Origin: a virus
Taxonomy: Duplodnaviria > Heunggongvirae > Uroviricota > Caudoviricetes
IMG/VR virus record: IMGVR_UViG_649989947_000010
Span: 1-47,812 of that record
DNA: 47,812 bases
Reading direction: 5' to 3' (one strand)
The notes below the pieces were generated by a model. The model was not told the DNA's origin. It saw only the letters and a list, made by a program, of their open reading frames with translations, and made no database searches. The position numbers and the translations under genes were made by a program. Shown in pieces: positions 21,941 to 40,603 of the stretch (its first letter is position 1; the number at the start of each line of letters is the position of its first letter).

Positions 21941-22186
21941 TTGGCAGAACGTGTTGATGATGCAGAGCTGAGCATGAATCAGTTAGAAGCTCTCAAAGAC
22001 ATGGCCATCGATAACATCAGAAAGCAGGCACAGGTCGTGAGCCAGGTTTTTACAGGGAAGTGTCGTTACTGCAATGAATCGATTGAATCAGGCATTTATT
22101 GTGACGCTGAATGTGCGCAATGGCACAGGGAAGAGCAGGCTGCAAAACAGCGTAAATATGGCATGCGACCGGCAGGATTTGACTGA
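21941..22186 (+). CDS. Small C4 zinc-finger protein
   Basis: CRYC...CDAEC four-cysteine cluster; 81 aa. Confidence 0.45.
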   Translation: MAERVDDAELSMNQLEALKDMAIDNIRKQAQVVSQVFTGKCRYCNESIESGIYCDAECAQWHREEQAAKQRKYGMRPAGFD

Positions 22187-22188
22187 TT

Positions 22189-22767
22189 ATGTTGCGCTTT
22201 ACTGAGGAAGAGTTTCAGGCTTTTAGTGAGCGTCGAAATAAGGGGCGGTCCAGGCCAAAAACCAAAAAGGATCCATTCTTATCGCTTGCGCCGGTAAAAG
22301 AAGTTTCTCCACATGCGAAGGCACTTGCAGCACTGGCAAAGAACCCAGACCTGCGCGACGGAAATTGCGAGCACTTCGAGCAGGTTTTCATTTTTGATTA
22401 CTTCGAACGCAAGCACCCTGACATCTATGAGCTGTTGCATGCAACGCCTAACGGAGGGAAACGTTCAAAAGCAACCGCCGGGAAAATGAAGGCTGAAGGG
22501 CAGAAAAAAGGTTATCCGGACATGAGTCTCGATAAAGCATGCGGTATTTATCACGGCATGCGAATTGAGCTTAAAGAACTAAATGGTAAAGCCCCGACGA
22601 AAGAGCAGATCGCCTGGATGCGCAGGCTTAGAGAGGAAGGTTACTACGTCGTTCTTGCGTATGGTGCAGAACAAGCGATAACCGCCATCCTGGAATACAT
22701 AAGCCTTAAAAAGGGTGAGGCTATTGAGCATGTATTGAACGGCGATAAGTGGTTGCATGCTTCTTGA
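22189..22767 (+). CDS. Putative VRR-NUC-like nuclease
   Basis: C-terminal HATPNGGKRS...GYPDMSL...GMRIELK pattern resembles VRR-NUC. Confidence 0.35.
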   Translation: MLRFTEEEFQAFSERRNKGRSRPKTKKDPFLSLAPVKEVSPHAKALAALAKNPDLRDGNCEHFEQVFIFDYFERKHPDIYELLHATPNGGKRSKATAGKMKAEGQKKGYPDMSLDKACGIYHGMRIELKELNGKAPTKEQIAWMRRLREEGYYVVLAYGAEQAITAILEYISLKKGEAIEHVLNGDKWLHAS

Positions 22768-22833
22768 AATAATAAATTAATTAGTGCATATCCGCTCTTT
22801 GTGATAGTGCGCCTTAACATCGGGAGAATAATC

Positions 22834-22917
22834 GTGTCATCCAAGGTTAATTATGAGTCGCTGGCATCGGTCATGCCGCGTAATGAACAGGAAACAGATG
22901 CTGTAGTGGACCCTGTA
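22834..22917 (+). pseudogene. 5' part of small gene split by the IS10 insertion (3' part at 25406..25478)
   Basis: GTG at 22834 with RBS GGGAGA; frame runs into IS10 outside end; joining across the 9-bp duplication restores a ~52-codon ORF ending TAG 25476-25478. Confidence 0.45.
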
Positions 22918-24246
22918 CTGATGAATCCCCTAATGATTTTGGTAAAAATCATTAAGTTAAGGTGGATACACATCTTGTCATATGATCAAATGGTTTCGCG
23001 AAAAATCAATAATCAGACAACAAGATGTGCGAACTCGATATTTTACACGACTCTCTTTACCAATTCTGCCCCGAATTACACTTAAAACGACTCAACAGCT
23101 TAACGTTGGCTTGCCACGCATTACTTGACTGTAAAACTCTCACTCTTACCGAACTTGGCCGTAACCTGCCAACCAAAGCGAGAACAAAACATAACATCAA
23201 ACGAATCGACCGATTGTTAGGTAATCGTCACCTCCACAAAGAGCGACTCGCTGTATACCGTTGGCATGCTAGCTTTATCTGTTCGGGCAATACGATGCCC
23301 ATTGTACTTGTTGACTGGTCTGATATTCGTGAGCAAAAACGACTTATGGTATTGCGAGCTTCAGTCGCACTACACGGTCGTTCTGTTACTCTTTATGAGA
23401 AAGCGTTCCCGCTTTCAGAGCAATGTTCAAAGAAAGCTCATGACCAATTTCTAGCCGACCTTGCGAGCATTCTACCGAGTAACACCACACCGCTCATTGT
23501 CAGTGATGCTGGCTTTAAAGTGCCATGGTATAAATCCGTTGAGAAGCTGGGTTGGTACTGGTTAAGTCGAGTAAGAGGAAAAGTACAATATGCAGACCTA
23601 GGAGCGGAAAACTGGAAACCTATCAGCAACTTACATGATATGTCATCTAGTCACTCAAAGACTTTAGGCTATAAGAGGCTGACTAAAAGCAATCCAATCT
23701 CATGCCAAATTCTATTGTATAAATCTCGCTCTAAAGGCCGAAAAAATCAGCGCTCGACACGGACTCATTGTCACCACCCGTCACCTAAAATCTACTCAGC
23801 GTCGGCAAAGGAGCCATGGGTTCTAGCAACTAACTTACCTGTTGAAATTCGAACACCCAAACAACTTGTTAATATCTATTCGAAGCGAATGCAGATTGAA
23901 GAAACCTTCCGAGACTTGAAAAGTCCTGCCTACGGACTAGGCCTACGCCATAGCCGAACGAGCAGCTCAGAGCGTTTTGATATCATGCTGCTAATCGCCC
24001 TGATGCTTCAACTAACATGTTGGCTTGCGGGCGTTCATGCTCAGAAACAAGGTTGGGACAAGCACTTCCAGGCTAACACAGTCAGAAATCGAAACGTACT
24101 CTCAACAGTTCGCTTAGGCATGGAAGTTTTGCGGCATTCTGGCTACACAATAACAAGGGAAGACTTACTCGTGGCTGCAACCCTACTAGCTCAAAATTTA
24201 TTCACACATGGTTACGCTTTGGGGAAATTATGAGGGGATCTCTCAG
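22918..24246 (+). mobile_element. IS10 (IS4 family), complete 1329-bp copy
   Basis: Outside end CTGATGAATCCCCTAATGATTTTGG at 22918; inside end ...GGGGATCTCTCAG ending 24246; 402-aa transposase. Confidence 0.95.
23025..24233 (+). CDS. IS10 transposase
   Basis: 402 aa beginning MCELDILHDSLYQFCPELHLKRL, as recalled for IS10/Tn10 transposase. Confidence 0.95.
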   Translation: MCELDILHDSLYQFCPELHLKRLNSLTLACHALLDCKTLTLTELGRNLPTKARTKHNIKRIDRLLGNRHLHKERLAVYRWHASFICSGNTMPIVLVDWSDIREQKRLMVLRASVALHGRSVTLYEKAFPLSEQCSKKAHDQFLADLASILPSNTTPLIVSDAGFKVPWYKSVEKLGWYWLSRVRGKVQYADLGAENWKPISNLHDMSSSHSKTLGYKRLTKSNPISCQILLYKSRSKGRKNQRSTRTHCHHPSPKIYSASAKEPWVLATNLPVEIRTPKQLVNIYSKRMQIEETFRDLKSPAYGLGLRHSRTSSSERFDIMLLIALMLQLTCWLAGVHAQKQGWDKHFQANTVRNRNVLSTVRLGMEVLRHSGYTITREDLLVAATLLAQNLFTHGYALGKL

Positions 24247-25383
24247 AGCTTAACGTTGGCCTGCCACGCCTTACTTGACTGTAAAACTCTCACTCTTACC
24301 GAACTTGGCCGTAACCTGCCAACCAAAGCGAGAACAAAACATAACATCAAACGAATCGACCGATTGTTAGGTAATCGTCACCTCCACAAAGAGCGACTCG
24401 CTGTATACCGTTGGCATGCTAGCTTTATCTGTTCGGGCAATACGATGCCCATTGTACTTGTTGACTGGTCTGATATCCGTGAGCAAAAACGGCTTATGGT
24501 ATTGCGAGCTTCAGTCGCACTACACGGTCGTTCTGTTACTCTTTATGAGAAAGCGTTCCCGCTTTCAGAGCAATGTTCAAAGAAAGCTCATGACCAATTT
24601 CTAGCCGACCTTGCGAGCATTCTACCGAGTAACACCACACCGCTCATTGTCAGTGATGCTGGCTTTAAAGTGCCATGGTATAAATCCGTTGAGAAGCTGG
24701 GTTGGTACTGGTTAAGTCGAGTAAGAGGAAAAGTACAATATGCAGACCTAGGAGCGGAAAACTGGAAACCTATCAGCAACTTACATGATATGTCATCTAG
24801 TCACTCAAAGACTTTAGGCTATAAGAGGCTGACTAAAAGCAATCCAATCTCATGCCAAATTCTATTGTATAAATCTCGCTCTAAAGGCCGAAAAAATCAG
24901 CGCTCGACACGGACTCATTGTCACCACCCGTCACCTAAAATCTACTCAGCGTCGGCAAAGGAGCCATGGGTTCTAGCAACTAACTTACCTGTTGAAATTC
25001 GAACACCCAAACAACTTGTTAATATCTATTCGAAGCGAATGCAGATTGAAGAAACCTTCCGAGACTTGAAAAGTCCTGCCTACGGACTAGGCCTACGCCA
25101 TAGCCGAACGAGCAGCTCAGAGCGTTTTGATATCATGCTGCTAATCGCCCTGATGCTTCAACTAACATGTTGGCTTGCGGGCGTTCATGCTCAGAAACAA
25201 GGTTGGGACAAGCACTTCCAGGCTAACACAGTCAGAAATCGAAACGTACTCTCAACAGTTCGCTTAGGCATGGAAGTTTTGCGGCATTCTGGCTACACAA
25301 TAACAAGGGAAGACTTACTCGTGGCTGCAACCCTACTAGCTCAAAATTTATTCACACATGGTTACGCTTTGGGGAAATTATGA
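24208..25383 (+). pseudogene. N-terminally truncated IS10 transposase ORF with chimeric start
   Basis: ORF starts inside the 3' end of copy 1 and reads across the junction; lacks the first ~27 native codons. Confidence 0.7.
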
Positions 25384-25396
25384 GGGGATCTCTCAG
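24247..25396 (+). mobile_element. IS10, 5'-truncated copy (positions ~180-1329) abutting the complete copy
   Basis: Begins AGCTTAACGTTGGC (equivalent to 23097 of copy 1), ends with inside end at 25396; four synonymous differences from copy 1 in the first ~250 bp. Confidence 0.9.
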
Positions 25397-25451
25397 GACC
25401 CTGTAATCGCTGAAATGAATGCTCGCCTGGAGGCTGAATTTGCAGCTGAGA

Positions 25452-26081
25452 ATGAACATACCACCCAGGGCGACTAGGACTGTTTTTTGTGTCGGTAGCG
25501 GTCCGTCACTCACTCGTGAGGACTGTGCTGCTATAGAAAAAACTGGCTGTTCAATCATCGCGGTTAACAATTCCTGGCAGATGTTCGATGACATTTATGC
25601 CTTATACGCCGGTGATTTGTCATGGTGGAAGCAATACGGTTCCACCATACCGGGAGGGAGGTTCCGCAAAGTGACAGCCAACCTGGCGGCGGCGAAATCA
25701 TTTTCGTTGGAGTACAGGCGATATTGTGGACCGGCGGAAGGGGTAAATAGCGGCGCGCAGGCTATCAGTCTGGCGGCTGAATCAGGGGCTGAAGTAGTTG
25801 TATTAGTCGGCTATGACTGTTCTCTGCAAAACGGCCTTCATTGGCATGGCGCGCACCCTCAAGCACTACGGAATCCAACGCAGGTGTCTATTTCTAAATG
25901 GCAACAGCAGTTCCTGGATACCCGCAAAAAACACGCAGATTTACATATTTTGAATGCAAGTAGGAGCAGTGCAATTCAATGTTTCCCAAGAATAAATTTA
26001 GAGGCAGTGATCGCGTTATTATCGTCGGCAGTGGCCCAAGCGCCGCAAACTTTGTTGCGCCGCGCGGAGTGCCGATTATAG
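25452..26081 (+). CDS. GSGPS-motif Rossmann-like protein, paralog A (sialyltransferase/DUF115-like fold?)
   Basis: VFCVGSGPSL...IIAVNN...VVLVGYDCS...H; paralogous to next gene. Confidence 0.45.
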   Translation: MNIPPRATRTVFCVGSGPSLTREDCAAIEKTGCSIIAVNNSWQMFDDIYALYAGDLSWWKQYGSTIPGGRFRKVTANLAAAKSFSLEYRRYCGPAEGVNSGAQAISLAAESGAEVVVLVGYDCSLQNGLHWHGAHPQALRNPTQVSISKWQQQFLDTRKKHADLHILNASRSSAIQCFPRINLEAVIALLSSAVAQAPQTLLRRAECRL

Positions 26082-26605
26082 CGGTCAATGGGGCCATCGA
26101 CTGGCTTAACCGCGCTTCTTATTTTTTCACACTTGATCCATCGCCAGACAATATGCGGCGCGTTGGTCGTGGCCGCCGTCGCCGTGGTGTTTGTTATTGC
26201 ATGGCACTACCCGATGTTAAAGAACGTGAAGTCAGGGATGGCGTTCTGTGCTTCCGTCGTGTGGCTGAACGCGGCACGGAGCCAAAAAATACGAATTCTC
26301 CCGAGTGGTGGGCGTGGCGCTGGTCCGCTCATTTCGGCCTTTGCGAAGATGAGAATGAAATTGCCAGCGGCAATAGTGCATATGGTGCTCTGAACCTGGC
26401 TTTCCATATCGGATTCAAACATGTAGCCCTGGTGGGCGTTGACGCTACGCAAGAACCACGCGTTCACTCCGGCGGCACGCCAAAAAATCTAAGTCACCTG
26501 CCTTTGTTATTCCAGTCTGCGCGTGAACAGATTGACGTTGTTTCATGCGGGAAAATGGGAGGTATTCCGCAGATGACTCTTAAAGAATGGCTGAAGAATA
26601 CATGA
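25979..26605 (+). CDS. GSGPS-motif Rossmann-like protein, paralog B
   Basis: [10 protein letters not shown]...IIAVNG...VALVGVDAT; overlaps paralog A by 103 nt. Confidence 0.45.
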
Positions 26606-27279
26606 TGGCACCCACAATTTATCACCGTATCGACGGTACCAAATACAGGAATGTCTGGGTTGTTGGTGATCTGCATGGTTGCTACACCAGACTGATGTCC
26701 GAACTCCATCGTGTGGATTTTGACCCGGCGCAGGATTTACTGATATCGGTCGGCGACCTTATCGATCGCGGTACTGAAAATGTCGAATGTCTGGAACTAT
26801 TGCAGATGCCCTGGTTCAGGGCAGTGATGGGGAACCATGAGCGGTTGATGCTCGATGCGTTAAGTCCTGATGGCAACGTGAATAACTGGCTAATGAATGG
26901 TGGACAATGGTTCTTCATGTTGGACACTGATCAGGAAATATTAGCCAGGGCGCTGGTGGAGCTGGTAAGACGTCTGCCCTATATCATTGAGTTGAACACC
27001 GGGCAAGAAACTATCGTTATAGCCCATGCCGACTATCCGGATAATGAATATCAATTCGGTAAGGAGGTGCCGCTTTTCAACGTTGTCTGGGCGCGCGAGC
27101 GTATCAGTGATTCGATGGATGATATTGGTGGCGAAATTTCGGGCGCAGATCGTTTTATCTTTGGTCACACTCCGGTGAAAAGCCCGAAGACATTCTGGAA
27201 TCAGCATTATATCGACACTGGTGCCGTATTTTGCGGAAACCTGACATTGATCAAAGTGAAAGGTGATGGTGCAGCATGA
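26587..27279 (+). CDS. ppp: Ser/Thr protein phosphatase (lambda-phosphatase-like metallophosphoesterase)
   Basis: GDLHG, GDLIDRG, GNHE motifs; near-colinear with recalled lambda PPase; alternative starts at 26602/26605. Confidence 0.85.
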
Positions 27280-30305: not shown

Positions 30306-30314
30306 GGGGGATGC

Positions 30315-31043
30315 ATGAAAGGCGAAGTGAAAGAGCGCGGCATGATTTTCAACGATGAGATGGTCCGGGCCATCATCGAAGGAAGGAAAACGCAGACGCG
30401 GCGGATAATGAAAAATCAGCCTGCGGAAGTTGGTCCAGAAGCACCAGTGATGGTTAGAAAAATTGGTGCAGGTTTTCAGTGGTACGGGGCTGATGGTGTA
30501 AGCAGTGTCTTCAATTGCCCCTTTGGTATCGTCGGCGATCGAATTTGGGTTCGTGAAACATGGGCGATATTAGGCAATGAGGATGGTTGTAGTGTGGACT
30601 GGAACGACAACCTTTGTCGTGGTGATGAGAAGAACGCAGCAAGGATTTATCGGGCCAGTTGTGAGCAAAAGCCTGGTGATTACGGCTTATGGTCGATACC
30701 CGATGATGCCGACTGGAAACCTCACACTGTGAATGAAAAGTTTGATGGTGGGTGGCGTCCATCAATTCACATGCCGCGATGGGCATCACGCATTCTGTTG
30801 GAAATTACCAACGTGCGCGTTGAGCGGTTGAACGATATCAGCGAATGCGATGCAGGGGCTGAGGGCGTTCCGCCTGCTGGAAGTTTGCTTCCTGATTACC
30901 CGGAAACATTCCTTACTCCCAAGGGGGATTTCGCAATGGCCAAGGTTGCGTTCCAGCGTCTGTGGGAATCCATCTATGGTGAAGAAAGCTGGAACGCTAA
31001 TCCCTGGGTATGGGTAATTGAGTTTAAGCGCATTCAGGAATAA
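30315..31043 (+). CDS. Phage protein, possibly ASCH/PUA-like
   Basis: N-terminus MIFNDEMVRAIIEGRKTQTRR resembles ASCH GxKxxExR-type motif; weak. Confidence 0.35.
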   Translation: MKGEVKERGMIFNDEMVRAIIEGRKTQTRRIMKNQPAEVGPEAPVMVRKIGAGFQWYGADGVSSVFNCPFGIVGDRIWVRETWAILGNEDGCSVDWNDNLCRGDEKNAARIYRASCEQKPGDYGLWSIPDDADWKPHTVNEKFDGGWRPSIHMPRWASRILLEITNVRVERLNDISECDAGAEGVPPAGSLLPDYPETFLTPKGDFAMAKVAFQRLWESIYGEESWNANPWVWVIEFKRIQE

Positions 31044-31052
31044 ACCGTGAGT

Positions 31053-31232
31053 ATGCATCAAGTCGTCAGCTTTTCAGGTGACGGGATTGCCAGAATGTAT
31101 GCCGACAGCGACTACAGAAATTTGTATCAGGCGATGGTGCAGGCCAAGCGGTTTGATACTGGTTCGTGTTCCGAATCATGTGAAATCTGGGGTGACCAAT
31201 TGGAGTTGAAATTCGAAGAGGTTGTGGCATGA
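31053..31232 (+). CDS. Small hypothetical protein
   Basis: ORF in tightly packed operon. Confidence 0.3.
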   Translation: MHQVVSFSGDGIARMYADSDYRNLYQAMVQAKRFDTGSCSESCEIWGDQLELKFEEVVA

Positions 31233-31432
31233 CAATCGTAAAAACCCATACCGGTACCGTGATCACCAAAGATGGCCCGCAGGTAAAAAAACTGCACCAA
31301 ACAGAGCGGATGTGGGTCGTTGGCAAAAACGAGTTTTACCACAAAGAAACTGGACGCCGCCATTTTGCAGAAAATACGCGCCGCCGACTGCTGTTAGACA
31401 CCATCAAGCCTATCGAGGTGAAGCATGTTTAA
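31229..31432 (+). CDS. Small hypothetical protein
   Basis: ORF with overlapping stop/start to neighbours. Confidence 0.3.
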   Translation: MTIVKTHTGTVITKDGPQVKKLHQTERMWVVGKNEFYHKETGRRHFAENTRRRLLLDTIKPIEVKHV

Positions 31433-31664
31433 ACAGAACGAAAAAGCTATCGCTCAAATTGCTGATTATATCCCGCGTGCGTGCCGGGGTATGCAGTTGC
31501 AGGAAGCCAAAGCGCGCCTGGAGAAAAAAATTGCGCTCTATATTGATGACGGCTGTGATGCCGCCGTTCTTAACGAGGCGTTCGCACCAGCTCTTAACAG
31601 TCATACTCGGGAGTCCTTTCTTTCGTGCATCGCAGCGCAACTCCACCAAGGAGGCATCCAGTGA
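31425..31664 (+). CDS. Small hypothetical protein
   Basis: ORF with GTGA overlap to next gene. Confidence 0.3.
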   Translation: MFKQNEKAIAQIADYIPRACRGMQLQEAKARLEKKIALYIDDGCDAAVLNEAFAPALNSHTRESFLSCIAAQLHQGGIQ

Positions 31665-32305
31665 GTAACCGTTTTTACATGATGTGCTTGCGTGAAACTG
31701 TGGGTAATAACGCCTCATTCCATTGCCATAACGGCAATGGTTACAGTTCTGATATCGATCGCGCTCATGTTTACACGCTGGAAGAAGCCCAAAAAGCCTG
31801 GAATTGTGGGCGAGATATCGATCAGCCTGTTTGTGCCGATAGTGTGGATGCAATTGCTGTGTGGCACGTTGATTGCCAGTACATCCCTACAGAAAGCCTG
31901 ATTGAGTCAGATTGCACTGCGTATGTGGCCTACAAAAAAGGTAGCTGGAACGGCAACGATGTTTACTGGCTTCAACACGGTGGATTGCCAACAGATGATT
32001 TCAGTAAAGCGACCATCTTTAGCGTCGCCAACAAAAACGAACCAGGAATAGTTTGGTTGCCATTTCCCATTGCTGATGCAGCAAAGCGCCGGACGTTCAA
32101 TATCAATAACTTTAACCGCAGAACAATGGTTCAGGGCGCAGGTTTGGTCATGCCTGACTGGTTGAAAGAGCAGAACAGAAGAAAGAAGTCGCGAAGCGGG
32201 AAGGTGCGTTGGAATTGTCCGCATTGCGGAAAAATCACCTGGCAGTACAGCCCATATGATTTTGAAGGCTGTAGTGATTACAACTGTGAAGGATGGCGAG
32301 AATGA
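31661..32305 (+). CDS. Cys-rich hypothetical protein
   Basis: GTG start at 31661 with RBS AAGGAGG; C-terminal CPHCG...C..C cluster. Confidence 0.4.
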   Translation: MSNRFYMMCLRETVGNNASFHCHNGNGYSSDIDRAHVYTLEEAQKAWNCGRDIDQPVCADSVDAIAVWHVDCQYIPTESLIESDCTAYVAYKKGSWNGNDVYWLQHGGLPTDDFSKATIFSVANKNEPGIVWLPFPIADAAKRRTFNINNFNRRTMVQGAGLVMPDWLKEQNRRKKSRSGKVRWNCPHCGKITWQYSPYDFEGCSDYNCEGWRE

Positions 32306-32985
32306 CAATTGACTATCAGGTACTGCGCGAGGCGGCGGAACAGGCAACGCAAGATGAATGGGTAGCATATATTTTGCCGGGGCAAAACGGCACTTATCCT
32401 GCGCATACGTCTGAGGGTAGGCATTGCGGATACTTTATTGACTGGCCTGGCATTGATGGACAGAGAAACGCTGGTGCCAATGCCCGTTATATCGCGGCTA
32501 TCCCACCCAAAGTTGTGCTGGCTCTACTGGATGAAATTAAGCGCCTGGAGGACACAAATATTGATGCTATGTGTCGAATTGCAGAGCTTGAGACTAATCT
32601 CGCGGCGCTGGTGGCGGAGAATGTGGGGCTAAAGGCGATATGTGATGACCGTCGCAGGTTCATCATGAATGGGGTGCAGATGGGTTATATCAAGGTGCCA
32701 GCAGCGGAAACAGATCCAGACCTTGAGACAATTCGCATTGCTATATCACCACAAAAGCCCATTCCAGCCACTGATGCTTTCCTGTCTGAAGTGCGGGCGC
32801 AGGGGGTGGATGCTGCTATAGAAGCTGCAAAAAATCTGGTGGTCCAAGAATATGAGTATAAGGATTTCAAAGCGGCGCAGAGTGATTGCTGTATGCACCC
32901 TGGTTCAGACCTGGTAGGGAAGGTTGAAATGACTGAGTGGTTAGTTGACTTTGCTGCCCAGCTTCGCAAAGGAGGCAACCAGTGA
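32293..32985 (+). CDS. Ea22-like early protein, paralog 1
   Basis: N-terminus DYQVLREAAEQATQDEW shared with next gene (DHQALREAAEQAMHDDW). Confidence 0.45.
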   Translation: MARMTIDYQVLREAAEQATQDEWVAYILPGQNGTYPAHTSEGRHCGYFIDWPGIDGQRNAGANARYIAAIPPKVVLALLDEIKRLEDTNIDAMCRIAELETNLAALVAENVGLKAICDDRRRFIMNGVQMGYIKVPAAETDPDLETIRIAISPQKPIPATDAFLSEVRAQGVDAAIEAAKNLVVQEYEYKDFKAAQSDCCMHPGSDLVGKVEMTEWLVDFAAQLRKGGNQ

Positions 32986-33557
32986 GCAAAATTGACCATC
33001 AGGCACTGCGTGAGGCGGCAGAGCAGGCAATGCATGACGACTGGGGATTTGACGCGGACCTTTTCCATGAGCTGGTAACACCATCGATTGTGCTGGAACT
33101 GCTGGATGAACAGGAAAGAAACCAGCAATACATCAAACGTCGCGACCAGGAGAACGAGGATATTGCGCTAACGGTAGGGAAACTGTTAATCGAAAACGGT
33201 CAGCTTGTTGCCGATACGCTACGCCACTTAGCTGATAACGAAATCGACTCTGATTATTTTGCTATCACCTCAACGAATGAGAACGGTACTGAAATTGATC
33301 ATGAGATGGCTATTACCGATTACGCACTGCAAGCTGCCGGAACTGTAGACGAATTGGTTGCAGCGCTGGAATCCGCAGAGAAGCGCATAGCAGAACTGTC
33401 TGCTAGCCACAGCAAATTGCGCGACACAATGGCTGGCATCCACAACACAATCCGAATGGATGGCGGATATACGCCACTGACAGCAATCCTTAACGCTGCT
33501 AAACGCGCATATGAAGAATCAGCAAGCGCAGCTGGCATTCGCATCAAAGGAGAGTGA
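32982..33557 (+). CDS. Ea22-like early protein, paralog 2
   Basis: Shared N-terminal motif; coiled-coil middle. Confidence 0.45.
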   Translation: MSKIDHQALREAAEQAMHDDWGFDADLFHELVTPSIVLELLDEQERNQQYIKRRDQENEDIALTVGKLLIENGQLVADTLRHLADNEIDSDYFAITSTNENGTEIDHEMAITDYALQAAGTVDELVAALESAEKRIAELSASHSKLRDTMAGIHNTIRMDGGYTPLTAILNAAKRAYEESASAAGIRIKGE

Positions 33558-33558
33558 T

Positions 33559-34074
33559 ATGGCGTTAACACACCGCGAACTCTGTCAGATTGCGTACAAG
33601 TTCCTTAAGCGCAACGGGTTCAAGGTTTGTTTTCATGACCGCTTTATAGCTGTAACCAGTACCGGAGAACAGCCAGATGCTATGGGATTCAGAAATTCAG
33701 CATCATGCCTGATAGAGGCGAAATGTTCTCGTGCTGACTTGTTGGCAGATAGAAAAAAGCGTTTTCGTAAAAATCCGTCTCTTGGAATGGGAGACTGGCG
33801 ATTCTTTATTAGTGAGCCGGGAATTATTTCAATTGAGGATTTACCACCTGGCTGGGGATTACTTCACGTTGTTAACGGAAGAGTACGGAAAGTACATGGG
33901 TGGCCCAAGGGTAATTGCTGTTGGGGTAATCCTGACGATAAGCCATTTACTGGAAATAAGCAGGTTGAATGCGATTACATGTTATCTGCATTAAGGCGCA
34001 TGGAGTTGAGAGGGCACCTTAATGAAATATATGACGGTGTAATTGTTAATAAGAAAGAAGGAAACGCGGCATGA
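33559..34074 (+). CDS. Putative PD-(D/E)xK-fold nuclease
   Basis: QPDAMGF ... CLIEAKCSRADL gives PD...(E)AK arrangement; RBS AAGGAGAG. Confidence 0.35.
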   Translation: MALTHRELCQIAYKFLKRNGFKVCFHDRFIAVTSTGEQPDAMGFRNSASCLIEAKCSRADLLADRKKRFRKNPSLGMGDWRFFISEPGIISIEDLPPGWGLLHVVNGRVRKVHGWPKGNCCWGNPDDKPFTGNKQVECDYMLSALRRMELRGHLNEIYDGVIVNKKEGNAA

Positions 34075-34478
34075 ACACTTTCACCGACAAAGAATTGATT
34101 AAAGAAATCAAAGAACGTATAGGCAGCCTGGACGTGCGAGACAATATTGAGCGCCGTGCTTATGAAATAGCGTTAGCCTCGCTGGAAGCTGAACCGGTGG
34201 CATGGCAGGTCACAATCACAAAAGACGGCCTGGACTCAGCCTCTATTATTTACCGTGACTGTGCAGAGAAAGATACATGGGTTCGGATACATGAGACACT
34301 TGGTTCTGTCGTACATGTCACCCCGCTTTACATGGCGTCGCCAGTGCCTGTAGTGCCGGAAGAAAAAACAATGCCTAATCCTCTTAGCATGTACGCGGTT
34401 GATGCTGTTGCCGCTATTGCAGAGGTAAGAGGCTGGAATGCCTGCCGCGCGGCTATGCTTCATGGGAAAGGAAAGTGA
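34071..34478 (+). CDS. Hypothetical protein sharing N-terminal module with 34911 gene
   Basis: YEIALASLEAEPVAW vs YKIALASLEAEPVAY in the 423-aa protein. Confidence 0.4.
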   Translation: MNTFTDKELIKEIKERIGSLDVRDNIERRAYEIALASLEAEPVAWQVTITKDGLDSASIIYRDCAEKDTWVRIHETLGSVVHVTPLYMASPVPVVPEEKTMPNPLSMYAVDAVAAIAEVRGWNACRAAMLHGKGK

Positions 34479-34479
34479 T

Positions 34480-34701
34480 ATGGCTAACTCATTACTTGAA
34501 ACCTGCAACAACTGGCAGATTCAGAGGGCGGAGATTTTATCTCGCAATCCAGATATGGCAATGACAATTGATAATCTGGACACGCTAATTGAACGGACCG
34601 TGCGTTCTGCAATTGATATAGCACATCGAGTGGATTGGGATTTCAGAGAAGCGGAGCGGCTTGCTAAAGAGCAGGAGAAAGCAGCGGGTAAAGGAGACTG
34701 A
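34480..34701 (+). CDS. Small hypothetical protein
   Basis: ATG at 34480 overlapping upstream stop. Confidence 0.3.
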   Translation: MANSLLETCNNWQIQRAEILSRNPDMAMTIDNLDTLIERTVRSAIDIAHRVDWDFREAERLAKEQEKAAGKGD

Positions 34702-34702
34702 T

Positions 34703-34900
34703 ATGGATAAAAACACCACTGCTTACTGGAATCTGTCACTTGATACCGAATGCCCAAAATGCGGTCACAATTTCGATCTGCTTTGTGATCCAGATTTCTG
34801 GGAATTTTCTGGAGCAAAACAGGCATGTGAAGAAATAAAAGGTTACGAAACATGCTGTCCAGAATGTAACCATGAATTTAAAACAGATTTTGTGTATTGA
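34703..34900 (+). CDS. Small zinc-ribbon protein
   Basis: CPKCGH ... CCPECNH. Confidence 0.35.
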   Translation: MDKNTTAYWNLSLDTECPKCGHNFDLLCDPDFWEFSGAKQACEEIKGYETCCPECNHEFKTDFVY

Positions 34901-34910
34901 GGCATAACGA

Positions 34911-36182
34911 ATGACCACTTTTACTAAAGAACAATTAATAGAGATGATTAAGCGCAATATAACGATTATGGATCGTTATCCTGATTTAGTAACTGCACAA
35001 ATGGATCTGGAAGTATACAAAATTGCGCTGGCATCACTGGAAGCAGAACCAGTTGCTTATATTTTCAAACATCCGGCCGGGAAATTATTCTGGGCTTTAA
35101 CGGATGAAAGCAATAAAGAGCAAGCGGACGTTATTCCTGTTTATGCTGCCGCGCCTGCGTCGGTTGTGCCGGATAATGCATCAGAGCCTCTTGCTTATGC
35201 TTACAAAGAGCTTACGCCTGAGATTATGCGCAACCATTTAGCTGTATTCGAGCGATATGGAATAGCCCCAAACGATAGCTCTACCACAATTCAGGCACTG
35301 CGAATCGCGCTGGATGGTATAGAGCGGAGCGACGCCATGCTTCAGTCCGGAAACTTTCGGGAAAACAAGAATTCGTCAACCAATAATTTTCGGGAAATCG
35401 CGGAAACGTCAACCAACTATCCGGTAATTCCTAGTGAGGTGTTGTCCGCAATCCTGAAGGTTGCCAAGATTCGTGCCGATTTCGATGATTTTGACGGTGA
35501 CAGGCGAGGTATCGATGATTGTCTGGATGAGGCTGAGCAAGAGCTTATCGTTACCATTAACAAATATGCCAGTCAGTTGGCAGCAGAACCGATAGCGACT
35601 AATGACGTTCGAGAGCAAACAGCCGTTCCGCCAGTTCCGGTAATACAGGCTGATGTCGCGCAGGCAATTGAAAAACTCAAACGGAAATTAGTGGAATGCA
35701 ATCGCTATAACTACTGCGCAGATGCAGTTAAAGGCGTTGAGGATGCCTGCCGTGCTGTTAGCTATAGCCATGCCGACAATCAACCAGCATCTGGCAACCA
35801 GGCAGCCGAATCCAATCGCGGTAATGAGTGGACCGGCAATCCTGATATTGATAACGCCATCATCATGCTCGATCGCATAGATACGCTGGAAAGTTGCGAT
35901 GATGACCGTATTGAGGCTGTTAAGGCTGTTTTGCGTAGACTAGCTGGCAACTCTCCGGTAACTCCGGATGGTTGGATAAGCTGTAGTGAGCGAATGCCGG
36001 ATACCAAAACAGCCGTTCTTGTTGCCGTGGAGTTTGACAGGAAAGGTGACTGGCGAATGAAATGGGCTACTTACATCCCGGGGCATCCTGACGCTAATGA
36101 TGGGTGGATAATTCCTGGTGCGTCGTGGAAACCGTCACACTGGATGCCGCTACCAGAACCGCCGCAGGAGGTGAATCAATGA
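34911..36182 (+). CDS. Hypothetical protein (423 aa) with Ea22-like N-terminal module
   Basis: Shared N-terminal motif with 34071 gene; no recognised catalytic motif. Confidence 0.45.
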   Translation: MTTFTKEQLIEMIKRNITIMDRYPDLVTAQMDLEVYKIALASLEAEPVAYIFKHPAGKLFWALTDESNKEQADVIPVYAAAPASVVPDNASEPLAYAYKELTPEIMRNHLAVFERYGIAPNDSSTTIQALRIALDGIERSDAMLQSGNFRENKNSSTNNFREIAETSTNYPVIPSEVLSAILKVAKIRADFDDFDGDRRGIDDCLDEAEQELIVTINKYASQLAAEPIATNDVREQTAVPPVPVIQADVAQAIEKLKRKLVECNRYNYCADAVKGVEDACRAVSYSHADNQPASGNQAAESNRGNEWTGNPDIDNAIIMLDRIDTLESCDDDRIEAVKAVLRRLAGNSPVTPDGWISCSERMPDTKTAVLVAVEFDRKGDWRMKWATYIPGHPDANDGWIIPGASWKPSHWMPLPEPPQEVNQ

Positions 36183-36262
36183 GCTGGCCTGAAGCATTCA
36201 CCACGGTAGGAATTGTGATGGCGGCAGCACTGGGTTTGTATTCAATTTGTCGCTGGTGGTAA
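36179..36262 (+). CDS. 27-aa hydrophobic peptide, translationally coupled (ATGA overlap)
   Basis: MSWPEAFTTVGIVMAAALGLYSICRWW; RBS GGAGGTG; not in ORF track. Confidence 0.4.
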   Translation: MSWPEAFTTVGIVMAAALGLYSICRWW

Positions 36263-36264
36263 CG

Positions 36265-36498
36265 ATGGGAAAAATAACTTTTGTAGTCGAATTTGAGGAT
36301 GGTAAAGAGCCACCTGTTAGCGCCAATCTTGATGTTGCTGGTGGCAGGCTTGTTTCGGTTCTATTTGGTGACTACCGAGATGATTTCTTCCAACCAGAAG
36401 AAGTTGATGTGGTGCGAGAGGCATTAAACGAGTTAAGTGTTGATAACGATGATGCTCATGCGGAAATCATCCAAAAAATGGAGCTGCTAACTCACTAA
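36265..36498 (+). CDS. Small acidic hypothetical protein
   Basis: ORF 36247..36498 trimmed to internal ATG. Confidence 0.3.
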   Translation: MGKITFVVEFEDGKEPPVSANLDVAGGRLVSVLFGDYRDDFFQPEEVDVVREALNELSVDNDDAHAEIIQKMELLTH

Positions 36499-36546
36499 AT
36501 TATCAATTATGGTGCTATCACCTACGACACCGAGAGAAAATTTATA

Positions 36547-36669
36547 ATGTCAAAAGTAAATGTTTTGATTTTTTCAGCAATTGTTGGCTTTGGTTTTACT
36601 GCCGGAGTGCAGATTTATATTACGTGGGAAAAAATCATCAACTACGCATGGAGTTGTTTTATTAAGTGA
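36547..36669 (+). CDS. 40-aa hydrophobic peptide
   Basis: MSKVNVLIFSAIVGFGFTAGVQIYITWEKIINYAWSCFIK; weak RBS. Confidence 0.3.
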   Translation: MSKVNVLIFSAIVGFGFTAGVQIYITWEKIINYAWSCFIK

Positions 36670-36676
36670 GGTAAGT

Positions 36677-36970
36677 ATGTGGAGAGGTAATAGTCATGGC
36701 AAAAGCCAGATGATACTTACCGAATATCAGCTCGACCACAAAACCAATAAATCACGTTCAGTATATTTGCTTCGCCACAATAGCCGCGTAAGGAATACCG
36801 TACTGGAGCAAAATCTGACCGTTGAAATGGATAATTACGGGGGCTTCAAGCCAACAATATCGCTTGATGATTTTCCTCGTGGTTTAAGCGAAAGAGAAGC
36901 AATGCTGAAATTAGCAGAATGGCTACAAAGATTAAGCATTGCTATTGAAGATAACTGGTCTGAACCTTAA
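36677..36970 (+). CDS. Small hypothetical protein
   Basis: ATG at 36677 with RBS GAGGTAAG. Confidence 0.35.
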   Translation: MWRGNSHGKSQMILTEYQLDHKTNKSRSVYLLRHNSRVRNTVLEQNLTVEMDNYGGFKPTISLDDFPRGLSEREAMLKLAEWLQRLSIAIEDNWSEP

Positions 36971-36976
36971 ATTAAT

Positions 36977-37351
36977 ATGATGACACTAAAACATTTTCTT
37001 GACCGCCCATTATGGGCGGCAGCCGCAGGCTATGACTTTAATTATATGGATTGCATGTCTTATACTGCCAATGCATACGACCATTCGTTCAGCCTGCTGT
37101 TTAATTCTTTAAGAATATTGCCGGAAACAGAAGTTGGAGAGCTTCATTTATGGATATTGGGCTTTATCGCGGCTGTCGTTGGTATTGCTGTATGGCCTTT
37201 TATTTTCTGGCTGGTGGCTGTTGTAGTGTGGTTTAAGTGCAAGACATACCGGAGAAAGTATTTCTTAGGTGATGGAATGACTGATATTGCCAAAATGAAC
37301 ATTGAAAAATGGACTAAGGAATGTGAAAAGAAATGGCGCAAAAAGAAATGA
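36977..37351 (+). CDS. Membrane protein (124 aa)
   Basis: Hydrophobic stretch LWILGFIAAVVGIAVWPFIFWLVAVVVWF, basic C-terminus. Confidence 0.4.
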   Translation: MMTLKHFLDRPLWAAAAGYDFNYMDCMSYTANAYDHSFSLLFNSLRILPETEVGELHLWILGFIAAVVGIAVWPFIFWLVAVVVWFKCKTYRRKYFLGDGMTDIAKMNIEKWTKECEKKWRKKK

Positions 37352-38271
37352 CCAGAATCACTGAAGAGCGTATATCAGAGATTATTTCCCGTATCGAAAT
37401 GTATGGTCACGGTGCTGGATATACGGCAGATGAAGTATTGGCACTTGCCCAAATGGCTTTGGCGGCTTGCAAAGATGATAAAAAAATGAAGCTTATCGAC
37501 TTGTTAGTGAAGGAGCTGCCTAAGTGCGGCGGGTGGCCTGATGGAATGAGTTATTGTTACCTACCCAGTGTCAATTTAATGGCACCATGCGCGACTTTTG
37601 CTTTTGGCTCAGACCACAAAAAAGACACTTTCTTTGGGCGCAATTTTTGTTGTGAGATTGAGCTTCCAATTGGTGACCTTGATAGCGATGAATACCAGTC
37701 AGTTGTCACTCGCGAACAATACGAATCAGCTCTCATAGCGTCGCAGAAAGTCGAGTTCAATGGTGATGAACCTGAAAGTAAGACTTACAGGTTGGATTTT
37801 GGGCAATGGCTGGAACAGCAACGCGGAAAGATCGATGTGGACTGTGGTTGTGTGTCCACTGAAACATTCATGCACTGGCTGCGGGTAGCTTACGAGGCTG
37901 GCAACTATCCGGATATTCCGGATAGTTCGGTGTCAGCGCCAGGAAAGGGCGTCACCGGTGGACGTATCCGCATTAAGCCGCATGTTTATCGCGAACTGGT
38001 TAACCGTCTCCACGATACAGCGATCAAGTGTGCTGGCACCCAGCAATTACGAGAAAGAATTAGCCGTGTTTTGGGCGACGTTATTACGCCAGATCATCAT
38101 AAACAAGCCGAGAAAAGTGGCTTGGAAAGGTGTCACCTTGAGGCGGCATTAAACATTAAGCCGGGGCATACGCTTGGCATTATTGATGCACTATTGGTTC
38201 ATAAGATGGCCAGGGCTTTATTGCCGCTGGTGGCTGAAAAGCATGAGGCGGACCATGCCAACGAAAGCTGA
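37333..38271 (+). CDS. Hypothetical protein (312 aa)
   Basis: ORF in operon; no recognised domain. Confidence 0.4.
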   Translation: MAQKEMTRITEERISEIISRIEMYGHGAGYTADEVLALAQMALAACKDDKKMKLIDLLVKELPKCGGWPDGMSYCYLPSVNLMAPCATFAFGSDHKKDTFFGRNFCCEIELPIGDLDSDEYQSVVTREQYESALIASQKVEFNGDEPESKTYRLDFGQWLEQQRGKIDVDCGCVSTETFMHWLRVAYEAGNYPDIPDSSVSAPGKGVTGGRIRIKPHVYRELVNRLHDTAIKCAGTQQLRERISRVLGDVITPDHHKQAEKSGLERCHLEAALNIKPGHTLGIIDALLVHKMARALLPLVAEKHEADHANES

Positions 38272-38539
38272 GTTACAGGCGCGCATAGAGATTCTTGAAA
38301 AAGAGAATGCGAGTCTAAAAGGAATGCTGGCGCGGGCGGAAAGGGAATTATCAGGCAAATTATTGCCAGAAGAGCTGCCACCAGCAGATATACCTGATCG
38401 AGTGTCCTGGTGGATGAAGTATTTCCGTGCACCGTGGGAGGCGTTTTGGTGCTACGACCATCGCAGATGGTGTGATGAGCTTGATAGCAGTTTCCCCTAT
38501 TTTGCGGAAGGGAACTCTTGCCCTGAATGTAGGAGTTAA
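38255..38539 (+). CDS. Small protein with C-terminal W-x-DELD-x-SFPYF ... CPxC module, paralog 1
   Basis: RWCDELDSSFPYFAEGNSCPECRS; paralog of next gene. Confidence 0.4.
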   Translation: MPTKAELQARIEILEKENASLKGMLARAERELSGKLLPEELPPADIPDRVSWWMKYFRAPWEAFWCYDHRRWCDELDSSFPYFAEGNSCPECRS

Positions 38540-38844
38540 TGATGACCGGCGAGCTTTATTTTAAAATGGCACGGGAGCGGCGTGTGCATCTGGATCGGAT
38601 ATTTCATCTCCAGAAGAGAGTAGAAGAACTGGAACGTCGTCTGAACTGTTATCCTGTTGATATGGTGTCTGCAATACCGCCGATTCCAATAGAAATGCAG
38701 ATCCGCCTATGGATGGAAGAATATGGAATGCCGTGGGAGATATTTTTCTGCTTCGACCATAAACAGTGGGTAGATGAGCTGGATAATAGTTTCCCATATT
38801 TCACAGAGAACACATGCCCAGTATGCAGGAAGAACGGAATATGA
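38539..38844 (+). CDS. Small protein with C-terminal W-x-DELD-x-SFPYF ... CPxC module, paralog 2
   Basis: QWVDELDNSFPYFTENTCPVCRK; TAATG overlap with paralog 1. Confidence 0.4.
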   Translation: MMTGELYFKMARERRVHLDRIFHLQKRVEELERRLNCYPVDMVSAIPPIPIEMQIRLWMEEYGMPWEIFFCFDHKQWVDELDNSFPYFTENTCPVCRKNGI

Positions 38845-39365
38845 CAAAATTTGGAAAGCTGGAAGCTCATTTGCTAACTCGTAACTACCGCCATGATATA
38901 CACCCATATAGACAGTGGATCGATGAAAGCGAAGGAGTAGTTACATTCCCTCTATACAGGTTTGATGGGATGTTGGCTGGGTATCAGACATATAGACCAG
39001 GTGCTCATAAGCAGCATAGCAATCCGAAGATGGCCCGGTATTTCACGCGATCACACGGCAGACAGTTACTTTGGGGAACCTATCTTCCTTTAAAAGATGG
39101 CCCAATATGGATAACTGAGTCTATTTTTAAGAGCGCAGCTGTACACAACGCGGGCGGCAATTCGTGGGCGCTGTTAGGTTCGACTTTCTCCGCAGGATTA
39201 CGCCGTCAACTTGCGATGCTGCCGTATGACTTTCGTGTAATAGGTGACAATGATGCGGCTGGTGAATTACTTGTGAAGTCTTTCGGAAAAGGTTTTGTGG
39301 CCCCGGATCTTGACGAGCTACAACCACATGAAGTGTCTCATTTGATTTTTAGCCATAGCCAATAA
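38841..39365 (+). CDS. Small Toprim-domain protein
   Basis: IWITESIFKSAAV (conserved Glu) and VIGDNDAAG (DxD) in Toprim order; ATGA overlap with upstream gene. Confidence 0.4.
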   Translation: MTKFGKLEAHLLTRNYRHDIHPYRQWIDESEGVVTFPLYRFDGMLAGYQTYRPGAHKQHSNPKMARYFTRSHGRQLLWGTYLPLKDGPIWITESIFKSAAVHNAGGNSWALLGSTFSAGLRRQLAMLPYDFRVIGDNDAAGELLVKSFGKGFVAPDLDELQPHEVSHLIFSHSQ

Positions 39366-39487
39366 GCATCTCTCCCCTTTGAGGCCACAACTAGTGGCCT
39401 TAAACAATTTGTTTTCTACGTTTTCTTATTTGAGAAAATCACGTTGTTGGCAGCTCATAGGCTCGTTGTTATACATGGCTGTATAGA

Positions 39488-39844
39488 TTATGAGCGTAAA
39501 TTATTAGCGGATTTTAAGCCATATTCACCGTTGTAGAAATTACTCATGTTCCATTCATTGGGAAGCTCTTTTCTGTCCAATGTATAGTGGCGCACGATAT
39601 AACGATCTTCATCTTCTTCGATGGACAGGCGGACATAGCCAATGTGAATTACCGATACGGGCGGCGTCCGTATTGCATAGATATCGCGGAGATATACCGG
39701 TAGCTCGACAAATGCATCAGGTGCATCTGTGATGCTCATTTTTTCACAGTATTCATATAACGCATCGTTGATATCGTTAAGAGATTCATGATCGTATATT
39801 TCCAGGTAATTACCGCGATCGCGATGGTACTCGATTTTAGCCAT
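39488..39844 (-). CDS. Hypothetical protein (118 aa)
   Basis: Second gene of short leftward operon divergent from humD. Confidence 0.4.
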   Translation of the reverse strand: MAKIEYHRDRGNYLEIYDHESLNDINDALYEYCEKMSITDAPDAFVELPVYLRDIYAIRTPPVSVIHIGYVRLSIEEDEDRYIVRHYTLDRKELPNEWNMSNFYNGEYGLKSANNLRS

Positions 39845-40429: not shown

Positions 40430-40566
40430 AGCTAATTCCTTATTAACTGATTGGCAACGAGGTTACGCTGATCCGTTGGTGATGAATAGTAGCAAAGAGC
40501 ACAAAATCATCAGCGGTGGTTGATGTACGTAACGCGTTTGCACCAAAGGTGTCTCTTTAATGTATA

Positions 40567-40582
40567 CTGTATAAATGAACAG
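40567..40582 (+). promoter_or_regulatory. LexA (SOS) box CTGTATAAATGAACAG upstream of humD
   Basis: Perfect CTGT-N8-ACAG palindrome about 20 nt upstream of humD start. Confidence 0.8.
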
Positions 40583-40603
40583 TATTATTGAGGTGAAAAC
40601 GCT

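Follow-up and report, generated by a model that had tools for sequence, protein, structure and literature searches.

A complete IS10 joined to a 5'-truncated IS10 in the pmgN gene of a P1-like phage-plasmid

We found that the pmgN gene of a P1-like phage-plasmid is split by a complete IS10, whose inside end directly abuts position 180 of a second, 5'-truncated IS10 of a different allele, and that a single 9-bp target-site duplication surrounds the pair. The two copies meet at a 9-mer that lies close to the IS10 target consensus, and a nested counterpart of the arrangement stands at another locus in the chromosome of Escherichia coli Br_112_kylling. Because of this near-consensus target at the junction and the still nested form in Br_112_kylling, we argue that the arrangement goes back to a transposase that linked an end of IS10 with position 180 in a different IS10. 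The window, meaning the whole stretch of DNA that was analysed, has 47,812 nucleotides and comes from the IMG/VR virus record IMGVR_UViG_649989947_000010.

Anatomy of the insertion in pmgN

The host replicon is a P1-like phage-plasmid (Punavirus), collinear and nearly identical with P1 around the site. The identity to P1 is 98.6% across the 2 kb left of the insert and 98.8-99.1% for window positions 20003-26905 when the insert is removed; positions 2245-30309 are syntenic with plasmid pMB9880_2. Joining the flanks restores a GTG-started ORF of 51 codons, the product of which is identical to P1 PmgN (YP_006553), in good agreement with the gene of ~52 codons that the preliminary description of this DNA had predicted. 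P1 contains one GACCCTGTA, at the exact place of the insertion. The empty site GTGGACCCTGTAATCGCTGAA, which that description had proposed to look for in related genomes, is indeed found in P1 and in pMB9880_2, and the pmgN site is uninterrupted in 560 E. coli records. This insertion was seen in none of the other records searched, and the exact pattern of the pmgN/IS10 junction gave 0 matches in GTDB genomes, IMG/VR and JGI metagenomes.

Table 1. Features of the IS10 pair and of the interrupted pmgN gene, in window coordinates.
Feature	Position	Strand	Remark
pmgN 5' part, codons 1-28, GTG start	22834-22917	+	last 9 bp = left target duplication
Left target-site duplication GACCCTGTA	22909-22917		9 bp; single copy at this place in P1
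IS10 copy 1, complete 1329 bp	22918-24246	+	IS10-Right-type allele with 203A; both ends intact
Copy 1 outside end (terminal inverted repeat), CTGATGAATCCCCTAATGATTTT	22918-22940	+	sole outside end of the structure
Intact IS10 transposase gene, 402 aa	23025-24233	+	Pfam DDE_Tnp_1 PF01609, E=1.5e-24
Chimeric ORF, 391 aa	24208-25383	+	from the ORF list; DDE domain intact
Copy 1 inside end, GATC site at 24237	24224-24246	+	directly abuts IS10 position 180 of copy 2
AGCTTAACG = IS10 positions 180-188, proposed target 9-mer of the incoming IS10	24247-24255	+	1 mismatch to NGCTNAGCN
IS10 copy 2, 1150 bp = IS10 positions 180-1329	24247-25396	+	gapless alignment; Left/Right mosaic allele
Copy 2 inside end, GATC site at 25387	25374-25396	+	bounds the potentially mobile 2479-bp unit together with the outside end at 22918
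Right target-site duplication GACCCTGTA	25397-25405		9 bp
pmgN 3' part, codons 29-51 + stop	25406-25477	+	overlaps the start of pmgO (25419-26081)

The features are collected in Table 1. The window holds exactly two matches to GACCCTGTA, and these enclose both copies, just as had been claimed. In a control with 100 shuffled windows the mean was 0.25 matches, with two or more in 2 of the 100 shuffles. The position of the pair outweighs this count: it adjoins the outside end (CTGATGAATCC..., 22918) and the inside end (...GGGGATCTCTCAG, 25396). GACCCTGTA fits the relaxed IS10 target consensus NPuCNNNGPyN (PMC4574204), as do 1.46% of the 9-mers of the window, and shows four mismatches to the strict consensus NGCTNAGCN (PMC4574204, PMC2744996).

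A BLAST search of IS10 against the window returned copies 1 and 2 only. Copy 1 has the length and identity, the inverted repeats and the single 402-aa DDE transposase of IS10 (IS4 family). Its terminal inverted repeats are imperfect (CTGATGAATCCCCTAATGA... versus the reverse complement CTGAGAGATCCCCTCATAA...), and its transposase scores 87 bits against PF01609 (cut-off 23). Over its full length copy 1 equals the IS10-Right of Tn10 bar one base, including the ends, the transposase and the presence of a 9-bp duplication at a consensus-fitting site. It differs in that the duplication flanks the copy pair and not copy 1 alone, and in that a second, truncated mosaic copy lies next to it. PGAP labels IS10 as "IS4-like element ISVsa5 family". 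Copy 2 lacks exactly 179 bp of the IS10 5' end, so that the earlier claim of a 1329-bp IS10 directly joined to a copy without its first ~179 bp is confirmed to the base. With no outside end and with transposase codons 1-24 missing, copy 2 is an IS10 fragment and not an element. Going by published IS10 maps, it presumably also lacks the IHF site, the pIN and pOUT promoters and the RNA-OUT region. From their sequences, copy 1 would be autonomous, while copy 2 would be immobile unless its inside end pairs with the outside end of copy 1. Between that outside end at 22918 and the inside end of copy 2 lies a unit of 2479 bp, which is potentially mobile.

The two copies are direct and abutting and enclose no cargo, which separates them from a composite transposon of the Tn10 type. 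Two direct copies are also present in the IS10-9bp-IS10 tandems of JM109 srlD, E. coli D7 araG and Klebsiella IncU-type plasmids, which arise either from the strong target preference of IS10 or from a Tn10 inside-end rearrangement. In those tandems, however, a spacer of 9 bp separates two complete copies, whereas in the window an inside end runs straight into an internal position, without any spacer. The (IS)2 tandem dimers of IS30, IS21 and IS911 share the head-to-tail order. Their right and left terminal repeats abut, a few bp apart, which creates a hyper-reactive junction. In the window the inside end abuts the internal position 180, and because the second copy has no left end, there is no reactive junction of this kind. 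No description of the window arrangement was found in the literature on tandem, nested or truncated IS10.

Alleles, junction target and the nested counterpart

Copies 1 and 2 differ at exactly four positions of IS10, namely 194 (T/C), 203 (A/C), 410 (T/C) and 425 (A/G). All four are synonymous and alter the third position of a codon (29, 32, 101 and 106). The preliminary description had counted at least four such changes and had read the copies as distinct alleles, and it had advised an alignment to IS10-Right and IS10-Left, for which we used Tn10 of plasmid R100 as the reference. Copy 1 shows 1 mismatch (203A) to IS10-Right and 16 to IS10-Left. Copy 2 agrees with IS10-Left at 410 and 425 and with IS10-Right between 903 and 1300, and its 194C is private; known IS10-Left/Right polymorphisms account for two of the four differences. 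Because copy 1 is an IS10-Right with one change and copy 2 a Left/Right mosaic, the copies are, as judged from these bases, different alleles and not a fresh duplication.

At the junction 24246/24247 the exact terminus of the inside end is followed by position 180, with 0 bases of microhomology. The 9-mer that begins there, AGCTTAACG, belongs to the 6 of the 1321 IS10 9-mers that have at most one mismatch to NGCTNAGCN. A random breakpoint would therefore fall on such a site with a chance of ~0.5%.

Among 1620 IS10-bearing E. coli genomes, one further case of an insertion at IS10 positions 180-188 was found. In the chromosome of E. coli Br_112_kylling (NZ_CP182371), within yebB, IS10[1-188] is followed by a full IS10 and then by IS10[180-1329]. 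AGCTTAACG is duplicated around the inner IS10, and the outer duplication in yebB is GGCGCTATG. This structure has the target 9-mer, the relative orientation and the joining of the inside end to position 180 in common with the window, and its two IS10 copies are different alleles as well. It differs in the host locus, the outer duplication and the identity of the alleles. Moreover, Br_112_kylling still carries the left stub of 188 bp and has the inner duplication on both sides, whereas the stub is gone from the window. With the right half and one AGCTTAACG copy only, the window structure is derived from the nested form rather than an example of it.

When E. coli genomes and plasmids were searched with chimeric queries of 120 nt and 87 nt across the nested left junction AGCTTAACG/CTGATGAATCC, Br_112_kylling gave the only one-piece match. 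These queries are non-discriminating, since both halves lie within 190 bp of each other in every normal IS10 and so return two-piece matches with full coverage. Exact-pattern searches for the inside-end/position 180 junction and for the nested left junction gave 0 matches in GTDB genomes, IMG/VR and JGI metagenomes.

Origin of the arrangement

The preliminary description offered no mechanism. The one proposed here is the insertion of one IS10 into another at a near-consensus target, followed by the loss of the left stub. An IS10 of allele A (now copy 2) would have entered pmgN of the P1-like phage-plasmid and thereby generated the 9-bp duplication GACCCTGTA. An IS10 of allele B (now copy 1), in the same orientation, would then have transposed into allele A at the near-consensus AGCTTAACG (180-188), to give the nested form A[1-188] - B[1-1329] - A[180-1329]. 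Recombination between the 188-bp direct repeats A[1-188] and B[1-188], either RecA-dependent or by replication slippage, would have removed one of them and left a complete IS10 abutting A[180-1329], with the original duplication still outside. In favour of this course are the junction itself, in which an exact inside-end terminus meets position 180 with no microhomology, the near-consensus 9-mer at that place, the nested form in Br_112_kylling, the distinct alleles of the two copies and the clean insertion, for which P1 provides the exact empty site. Nor does Tn10/IS10 encode a target immunity of its own, and its integration into itself close to the ends has been described (PMC3952818). Against it stands that the first step is undocumented: a relative with a single IS10 at the GACCCTGTA site in pmgN was not found among the records searched. 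It also counts against it that Br_112_kylling is the sole other case of an insertion at 180-188 found in the 1620 IS10-bearing E. coli genomes. We infer the order of events and the manner of stub loss, and we would give this account, with all steps in pmgN, about an even chance of being right.

A possible, though tentative, alternative is that the nested form arose elsewhere and that the 2479-bp B + A[180-1329] moved into pmgN as one piece, with a fresh duplication of GACCCTGTA. In that case the inner copy would have contributed its outside end, and the outer copy its inside end, to the pair on which the transposase acted. The piece does have one intact outside end, one intact inside end and an intact transposase gene within, and a single 9-bp duplication surrounds the whole of it. 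Its target fits the relaxed consensus, which few 9-mers of the window do, and Br_112_kylling proves that a nested donor of the needed kind exists in nature. The missing relative with a single IS10 in pmgN also speaks for this transfer. On the other hand, the 2479-bp unit did not turn up anywhere else in the five collections searched (complete E. coli genomes, plasmids of PLSDB, GTDB species genomes, IMG/VR and the JGI metagenomes), and the number of events is equal to that of insertion and stub loss within pmgN. Both courses predict the identical final structure, and the sequence separates neither from the other.

We regard it as very improbable that a head-to-tail IS10-9bp-IS10 in pmgN came first and was then resolved by an intramolecular "inside-out" transposition into 180-188 of copy 2. 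Here copy 1 would have supplied its inside end and copy 2 the abutting outside end, and the spacer and the first 179 bp would have been deleted; the predicted product should match the observed structure exactly. Tandems of this type are known from 15 E. coli genomes and 11 plasmids, and one of them has a triple direct duplication at the perfect hotspot TGCTTAGCA. In addition, IHF directs target capture by Tn10 to places close to the ends of the transposon (PMC3952818). However, the four mismatches of GACCCTGTA to the strict hotspot make two independent insertions at this site unlikely. On general grounds, the synapsis of ends that are 9 bp apart is also sterically doubtful for the Tn10 transpososome. 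An inversion driven by the Tn10 inside ends into IS10-Right at 180-188 was considered as well and rejected. It predicts an inverted IS10[1-188] between copy 2 and the right duplication, which is absent, and it predicts a copy 1 of the IS10-Left type, whereas copy 1 is actually of the Right type.

IS copies are a classic source of misassembly, and an assembler could have expanded a single IS10 in pmgN and threaded in reads of other IS10 alleles. We nevertheless find such an artefact most unlikely: it would not be expected to yield a breakpoint with exactly an inside-end terminus on one side and a near-consensus target on the other, the same junction is present in the independent complete genome of Br_112_kylling, and the two copies are internally consistent and yet distinct alleles. 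Finally, the structure formally equals an 1150-bp tandem duplication of one IS10, but its formation without transposase, by slippage or illegitimate recombination and subsequent point mutations, is scarcely credible. The breakpoint combines an element terminus with a target-like 9-mer, two of the four differences are pre-existing Left/Right polymorphisms, and all four fall within 232 bp, unlike random mutation; slippage was rejected because the junction has no shared bases. Self-insertion of one IS10 between sister chromatids was dismissed as the sole event, since sites known to be polymorphic between Left and Right are among those that distinguish the copies.

Coding capacity and meaning for the phage-plasmid and IS10

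The chimeric ORF begins inside the 3' end of copy 1 and places 13 new residues (MVTLWGNYEGISQ) in frame with transposase residues 25-402. As an open reading frame, the chimeric N-terminus that had been ascribed to the second transposase ORF is therefore real. The signals for its expression did not appear: no sigma-70-like promoter for it was found in 22700-25600, the ATG at 24208 is not preceded by a Shine-Dalgarno sequence, and we see no indication in the sequence that it would be expressed. Like Inh of Tn5, the N-terminally truncated IS50 transposase, it would encode an IS4-family transposase without its N-terminus and with the DDE domain intact. Inh is expressed from a promoter and a start codon of its own and is 55 residues short. 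The chimeric ORF, in contrast, lacks 24 residues and has gained 13 foreign ones, and neither a promoter nor a ribosome-binding site could be detected for it, so that we treat the resemblance only as an analogy. By that analogy one may speculate that positions 180-188 are a recurrent self-target, that mobile 2.5-kb "one-and-a-bit" IS10 units exist and that their truncated transposase, made by read-through from copy 1, damps IS10 as Inh damps Tn5. We think this a long shot; if true, Inh-like damping by such units would be an accidental copy-number brake. For annotation, the 2.5-kb block should be given as pmgN::IS10 plus an IS10 fragment without positions 1-179, and the 391-aa ORF should not be named a transposase gene.

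For the phage-plasmid, the split reading frame suggests that pmgN is inactivated, and the insertion probably also cuts off the downstream genes pmgO, pmgP and ppp from their C1-controlled promoter. A CRISPRi screen rated pmgN as necessary for P1 to form plaques, whereas it came out as dispensable in a deletion survey (PMC10695390). With pmgN knocked out and pmgO, pmgP and ppp probably separated from their promoter, lytic growth of the phage-plasmid may suffer.

The 1150-bp tandem repeat should readily collapse to a single IS10, and the structure would therefore be young. What we describe is probably an ordinary, short-lived rearrangement of a very well-known mobile element. Both the element and the mechanism are already known. 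The current understanding of IS10 is unchanged by our finding, which provides a second natural example of IS10 itself using AGCTTAACG (positions 180-188) as a target and shows that IS10 is without protection against self-insertion.

The IS10 pair and its alleles

The preliminary description had placed a complete IS10 and a 5'-truncated second copy inside one 9-bp duplication, and the coordinates and the gap-free alignment of the second copy bear this out (see table). Indeed, GACCCTGTA is present in the window only twice, at the two borders of the insert, and the base following the inside end of copy 1 (24247) is IS10 position 180. The synonymous third-position changes reported between the copies are confirmed and number exactly four (IS10 194, 203, 410 and 425).

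Coordinates of the IS10 pair, of the nested form found in E. coli, and of the tRNA genes in the window
Feature	Position	Size	Remark
Left target duplication GACCCTGTA	22909-22917		directly before IS10 outside end
IS10 copy 1	22918-24246	1329 bp	outside end CTGATGAATCCCC... at 22918, inside end ...GGGGATCTCTCAG at 24246
IS10 copy 2	24247-25396		IS10 positions 180-1329, aligned without gaps
Right target duplication GACCCTGTA	25397-25405		directly after second inside end
Chimeric ORF	24208-25383	391 aa	start in tail of copy 1
Nested IS10-in-IS10, Br_112_kylling yebB	2044-4710 of locus L002		IS10[1-188] ending AGCTTAACG, complete IS10, AGCTTAACG, IS10[189-1329]
tRNA-Asn(GTT)	12119-12194		
tRNA-Thr(TGT)	12197-12272		
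tRNA with CAT anticodon	14273-14348		

As allele reference we used Tn10 of plasmid R100, in which IS10-Left and IS10-Right differ at 15 positions. Copy 1 departs from IS10-Right at one position (203A) and from IS10-Left at 16, while copy 2 carries the IS10-Left bases at 410 and 425, a private 194C, and the IS10-Right bases at 903, 1249, 1268, 1271, 1272, 1281 and 1300. From these patterns we conclude that the copies are distinct pre-existing alleles, as had been proposed, which rules out a fresh duplication that mutated later. The IS10 copies of E. coli JM109 and Br_112_kylling are likewise Left/Right mosaics. Taken together, the mosaic copies in the window, in these two strains and at locus L004 imply that recombination or gene conversion among natural IS10 copies would be frequent.

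Origin of the junction and of the pair

The first nine bases of copy 2 are AGCTTAACG, IS10 positions 180-188. IS10 prefers NGCTNAGCN as its target and creates duplications of 9 bp (PMC4574204, PMC2744996). A perfect match to NGCTNAGCN does not occur within IS10, and 6 of its 1321 9-mers, the one at position 180 included, have at most one mismatch; the chance of a random breakpoint falling on such a near-consensus site in register is about 0.5%. Additionally, the junction has the exact inside-end terminus on one side and no bases shared between the sides, which, judged from sequence, is the hallmark of transposase-mediated strand transfer. We regard it as very probable that transposase joined the inside end of one IS10 to position 180 of another, a step common to the routes considered here. 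Tn10/IS10 encodes no target immunity of its own, and self-integration near its own ends has been described (PMC3952818).

Among 5426 complete E. coli genomes, the Br_112_kylling chromosome alone contains this inside-end/position-180 junction in one piece, as a nested IS10-in-IS10 in yebB with GGCGCTATG as outer duplication. Its outer copy belongs to the IS10-Left type; the inner one, a mosaic, has the duplication AGCTTAACG at outer positions 180-188. Because these alleles differ from those of the window, the same target was hit there independently.

The IS10 pair is a derivative of such a self-insertion, from which the left stub of the outer IS10, A[1-188], is missing. There is about an even chance that the stub was lost in situ: A[1-188] and the same stretch of the inner IS10, B[1-188], form 188-bp direct repeats, and their recombination would delete one repeat. 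This route would have been favoured by a relative whose pmgN holds one IS10 only, but none was found in complete E. coli genomes, PLSDB, IMG/VR or the GTDB species genomes. Somewhat unlikely, yet deserving consideration, is that the 2479-bp unit moved whole into pmgN from a nested IS10-in-IS10 at any place in the cell. The unit runs from the outside end of B to the inside end of A, and transposase can move such a segment as one piece; GACCCTGTA, which would have been made on arrival, fits the relaxed consensus NPuCNNNGPyN, as do only 1.46% of window 9-mers. However, no second site with this unit, which would have argued for transposition, was found in complete E. coli genomes, PLSDB, GTDB, IMG/VR or JGI metagenomes. 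Both routes yield exactly the window structure. So does a tandem IS10-9bp-IS10 followed by inside-out deletion into positions 180-188, which we rate as highly improbable because a poor target would have to be hit twice and two ends only 9 bp apart would have to synapse. Misassembly is just as improbable, since an artefact would not be expected to break at a terminus beside a 9-mer that resembles a target and served as one in an independent genome too.

Related arrangements and capacity of the pair

The arrangement differs from a Tn10-type composite transposon by the direct orientation of the copies and the lack of cargo, from the (IS)2 reactive dimer by the missing left end of the second copy, and from a nested insertion by the missing left half. 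IS10 is among the most thoroughly studied insertion sequences. We found no description of this particular IS10 arrangement in the literature; as every step is known IS10 and host recombination chemistry, we file it as already known.

Fifteen complete E. coli genomes and 11 plasmids of PLSDB contain pairs of complete IS10 copies in direct orientation and exactly 9 bp apart, for example in JM109 srlD, K. pneumoniae pKp6001, E. coli D7 araG and p88_0502-4. Strain D7 carries three direct copies of the perfect hotspot TGCTTAGCA, which suggests that one hotspot was hit twice in succession. The middle 9-mer of the JM109 and pKp6001 pairs matches the right flank in reverse complement, in JM109 the left flank as well, and the arrangement resembles the outcome of a Tn10 inside-end inversion in which the tet region was lost.

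With both ends present and its 402-aa DDE transposase gene intact, copy 1 should be autonomous. Positions 1-179 are missing from copy 2, and with them the outside end and codons 1-24; going by published IS10 maps, this stretch presumably also contains the IHF site, pIN, pOUT and the RNA-OUT region. The chimeric N-terminus noted for the second transposase ORF does exist as a reading frame, in which 13 unrelated residues lead in frame into transposase residue 25 and the DDE domain is retained. We found neither a sigma-70-like promoter across 22700-25600 nor a Shine-Dalgarno sequence upstream of the ATG, and we treat the ORF as an accident of reading frame. It is very doubtful that positions 180-188 are a recurrent self-target and, jointly, that the resulting unit is mobile and makes an inhibitory truncated transposase. 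Tandem repeats are unstable, and two 1150-bp repeats should readily recombine to a single IS10. This expected collapse, together with the absence of the structure from all searched collections, suggests that the pair is recent.

pmgN and the phage-plasmid setting

By its sequence matches the window belongs to a P1-type phage-plasmid: the flanks of the insert match phage P1 and hundreds of P1-like E. coli plasmids at 98-99% identity, and 2245-30309 is syntenic with plasmid pMB9880_2. The split gene is pmgN (22834-25477), which in P1 has 51 codons, lies 3' of pmgM, has the predicted promoter PpmgN and the C1-controlled operator Oppp upstream of it, and overlaps the pmgO start. When the insert and one GACCCTGTA are removed in silico, the ORF product is identical to P1 PmgN, so that the small gene expected from joining the flanks (estimated at ~52 codons) is recovered. 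The empty site exists as well: P1 has a single GACCCTGTA, at the exact insertion point, and the E. coli complete-genome set contains 560 records with an uninterrupted pmgN site. No other pmgN/IS10 junction was found in that set, PLSDB, IMG/VR or the GTDB species genomes, and hence the insertion is private to this element.

The closest relative, pMB9880_2, carries an IS1203 (IS3 family, 18438-19651 of locus L005) inside its tail protein gene, the counterpart of P1 gene 25, which in the window (about 20606) is uninterrupted. Thus the IS elements that P1-like plasmids acquire in this morphogenesis region differ. Where pMB9880_2 has a type I restriction-modification locus (hsdR/S/M), the window has, at 30310-40990, ~10.7 kb of small phage genes unrelated to it (among them those for two Ead/Ea22-like proteins and one DUF551 protein, and several ORFs without Pfam match). 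Two further stretches do not align to this plasmid, 10165-10331, in the region matching its Dam-family methyltransferase gene, and 13167-14264, between tRNA genes. The CAT-anticodon tRNA is called Met by ARAGORN and its pMB9880_2 counterpart tRNA-Ile by PGAP; it is presumably read as Ile after lysidine modification.

For the phage, the insertion would destroy pmgN and shift pmgO, pmgP and ppp 2.5 kb from their promoter. In a CRISPRi screen P1 needed pmgN to form plaques (efficiency of plating 1.4e-2, a ~70-fold drop), whereas the authors point to a deletion survey that classed pmgN as non-essential; the genes downstream of it were non-essential (PMC10695390). A natural pmgN::IS10 phage-plasmid could help to settle these conflicting data on pmgN essentiality.
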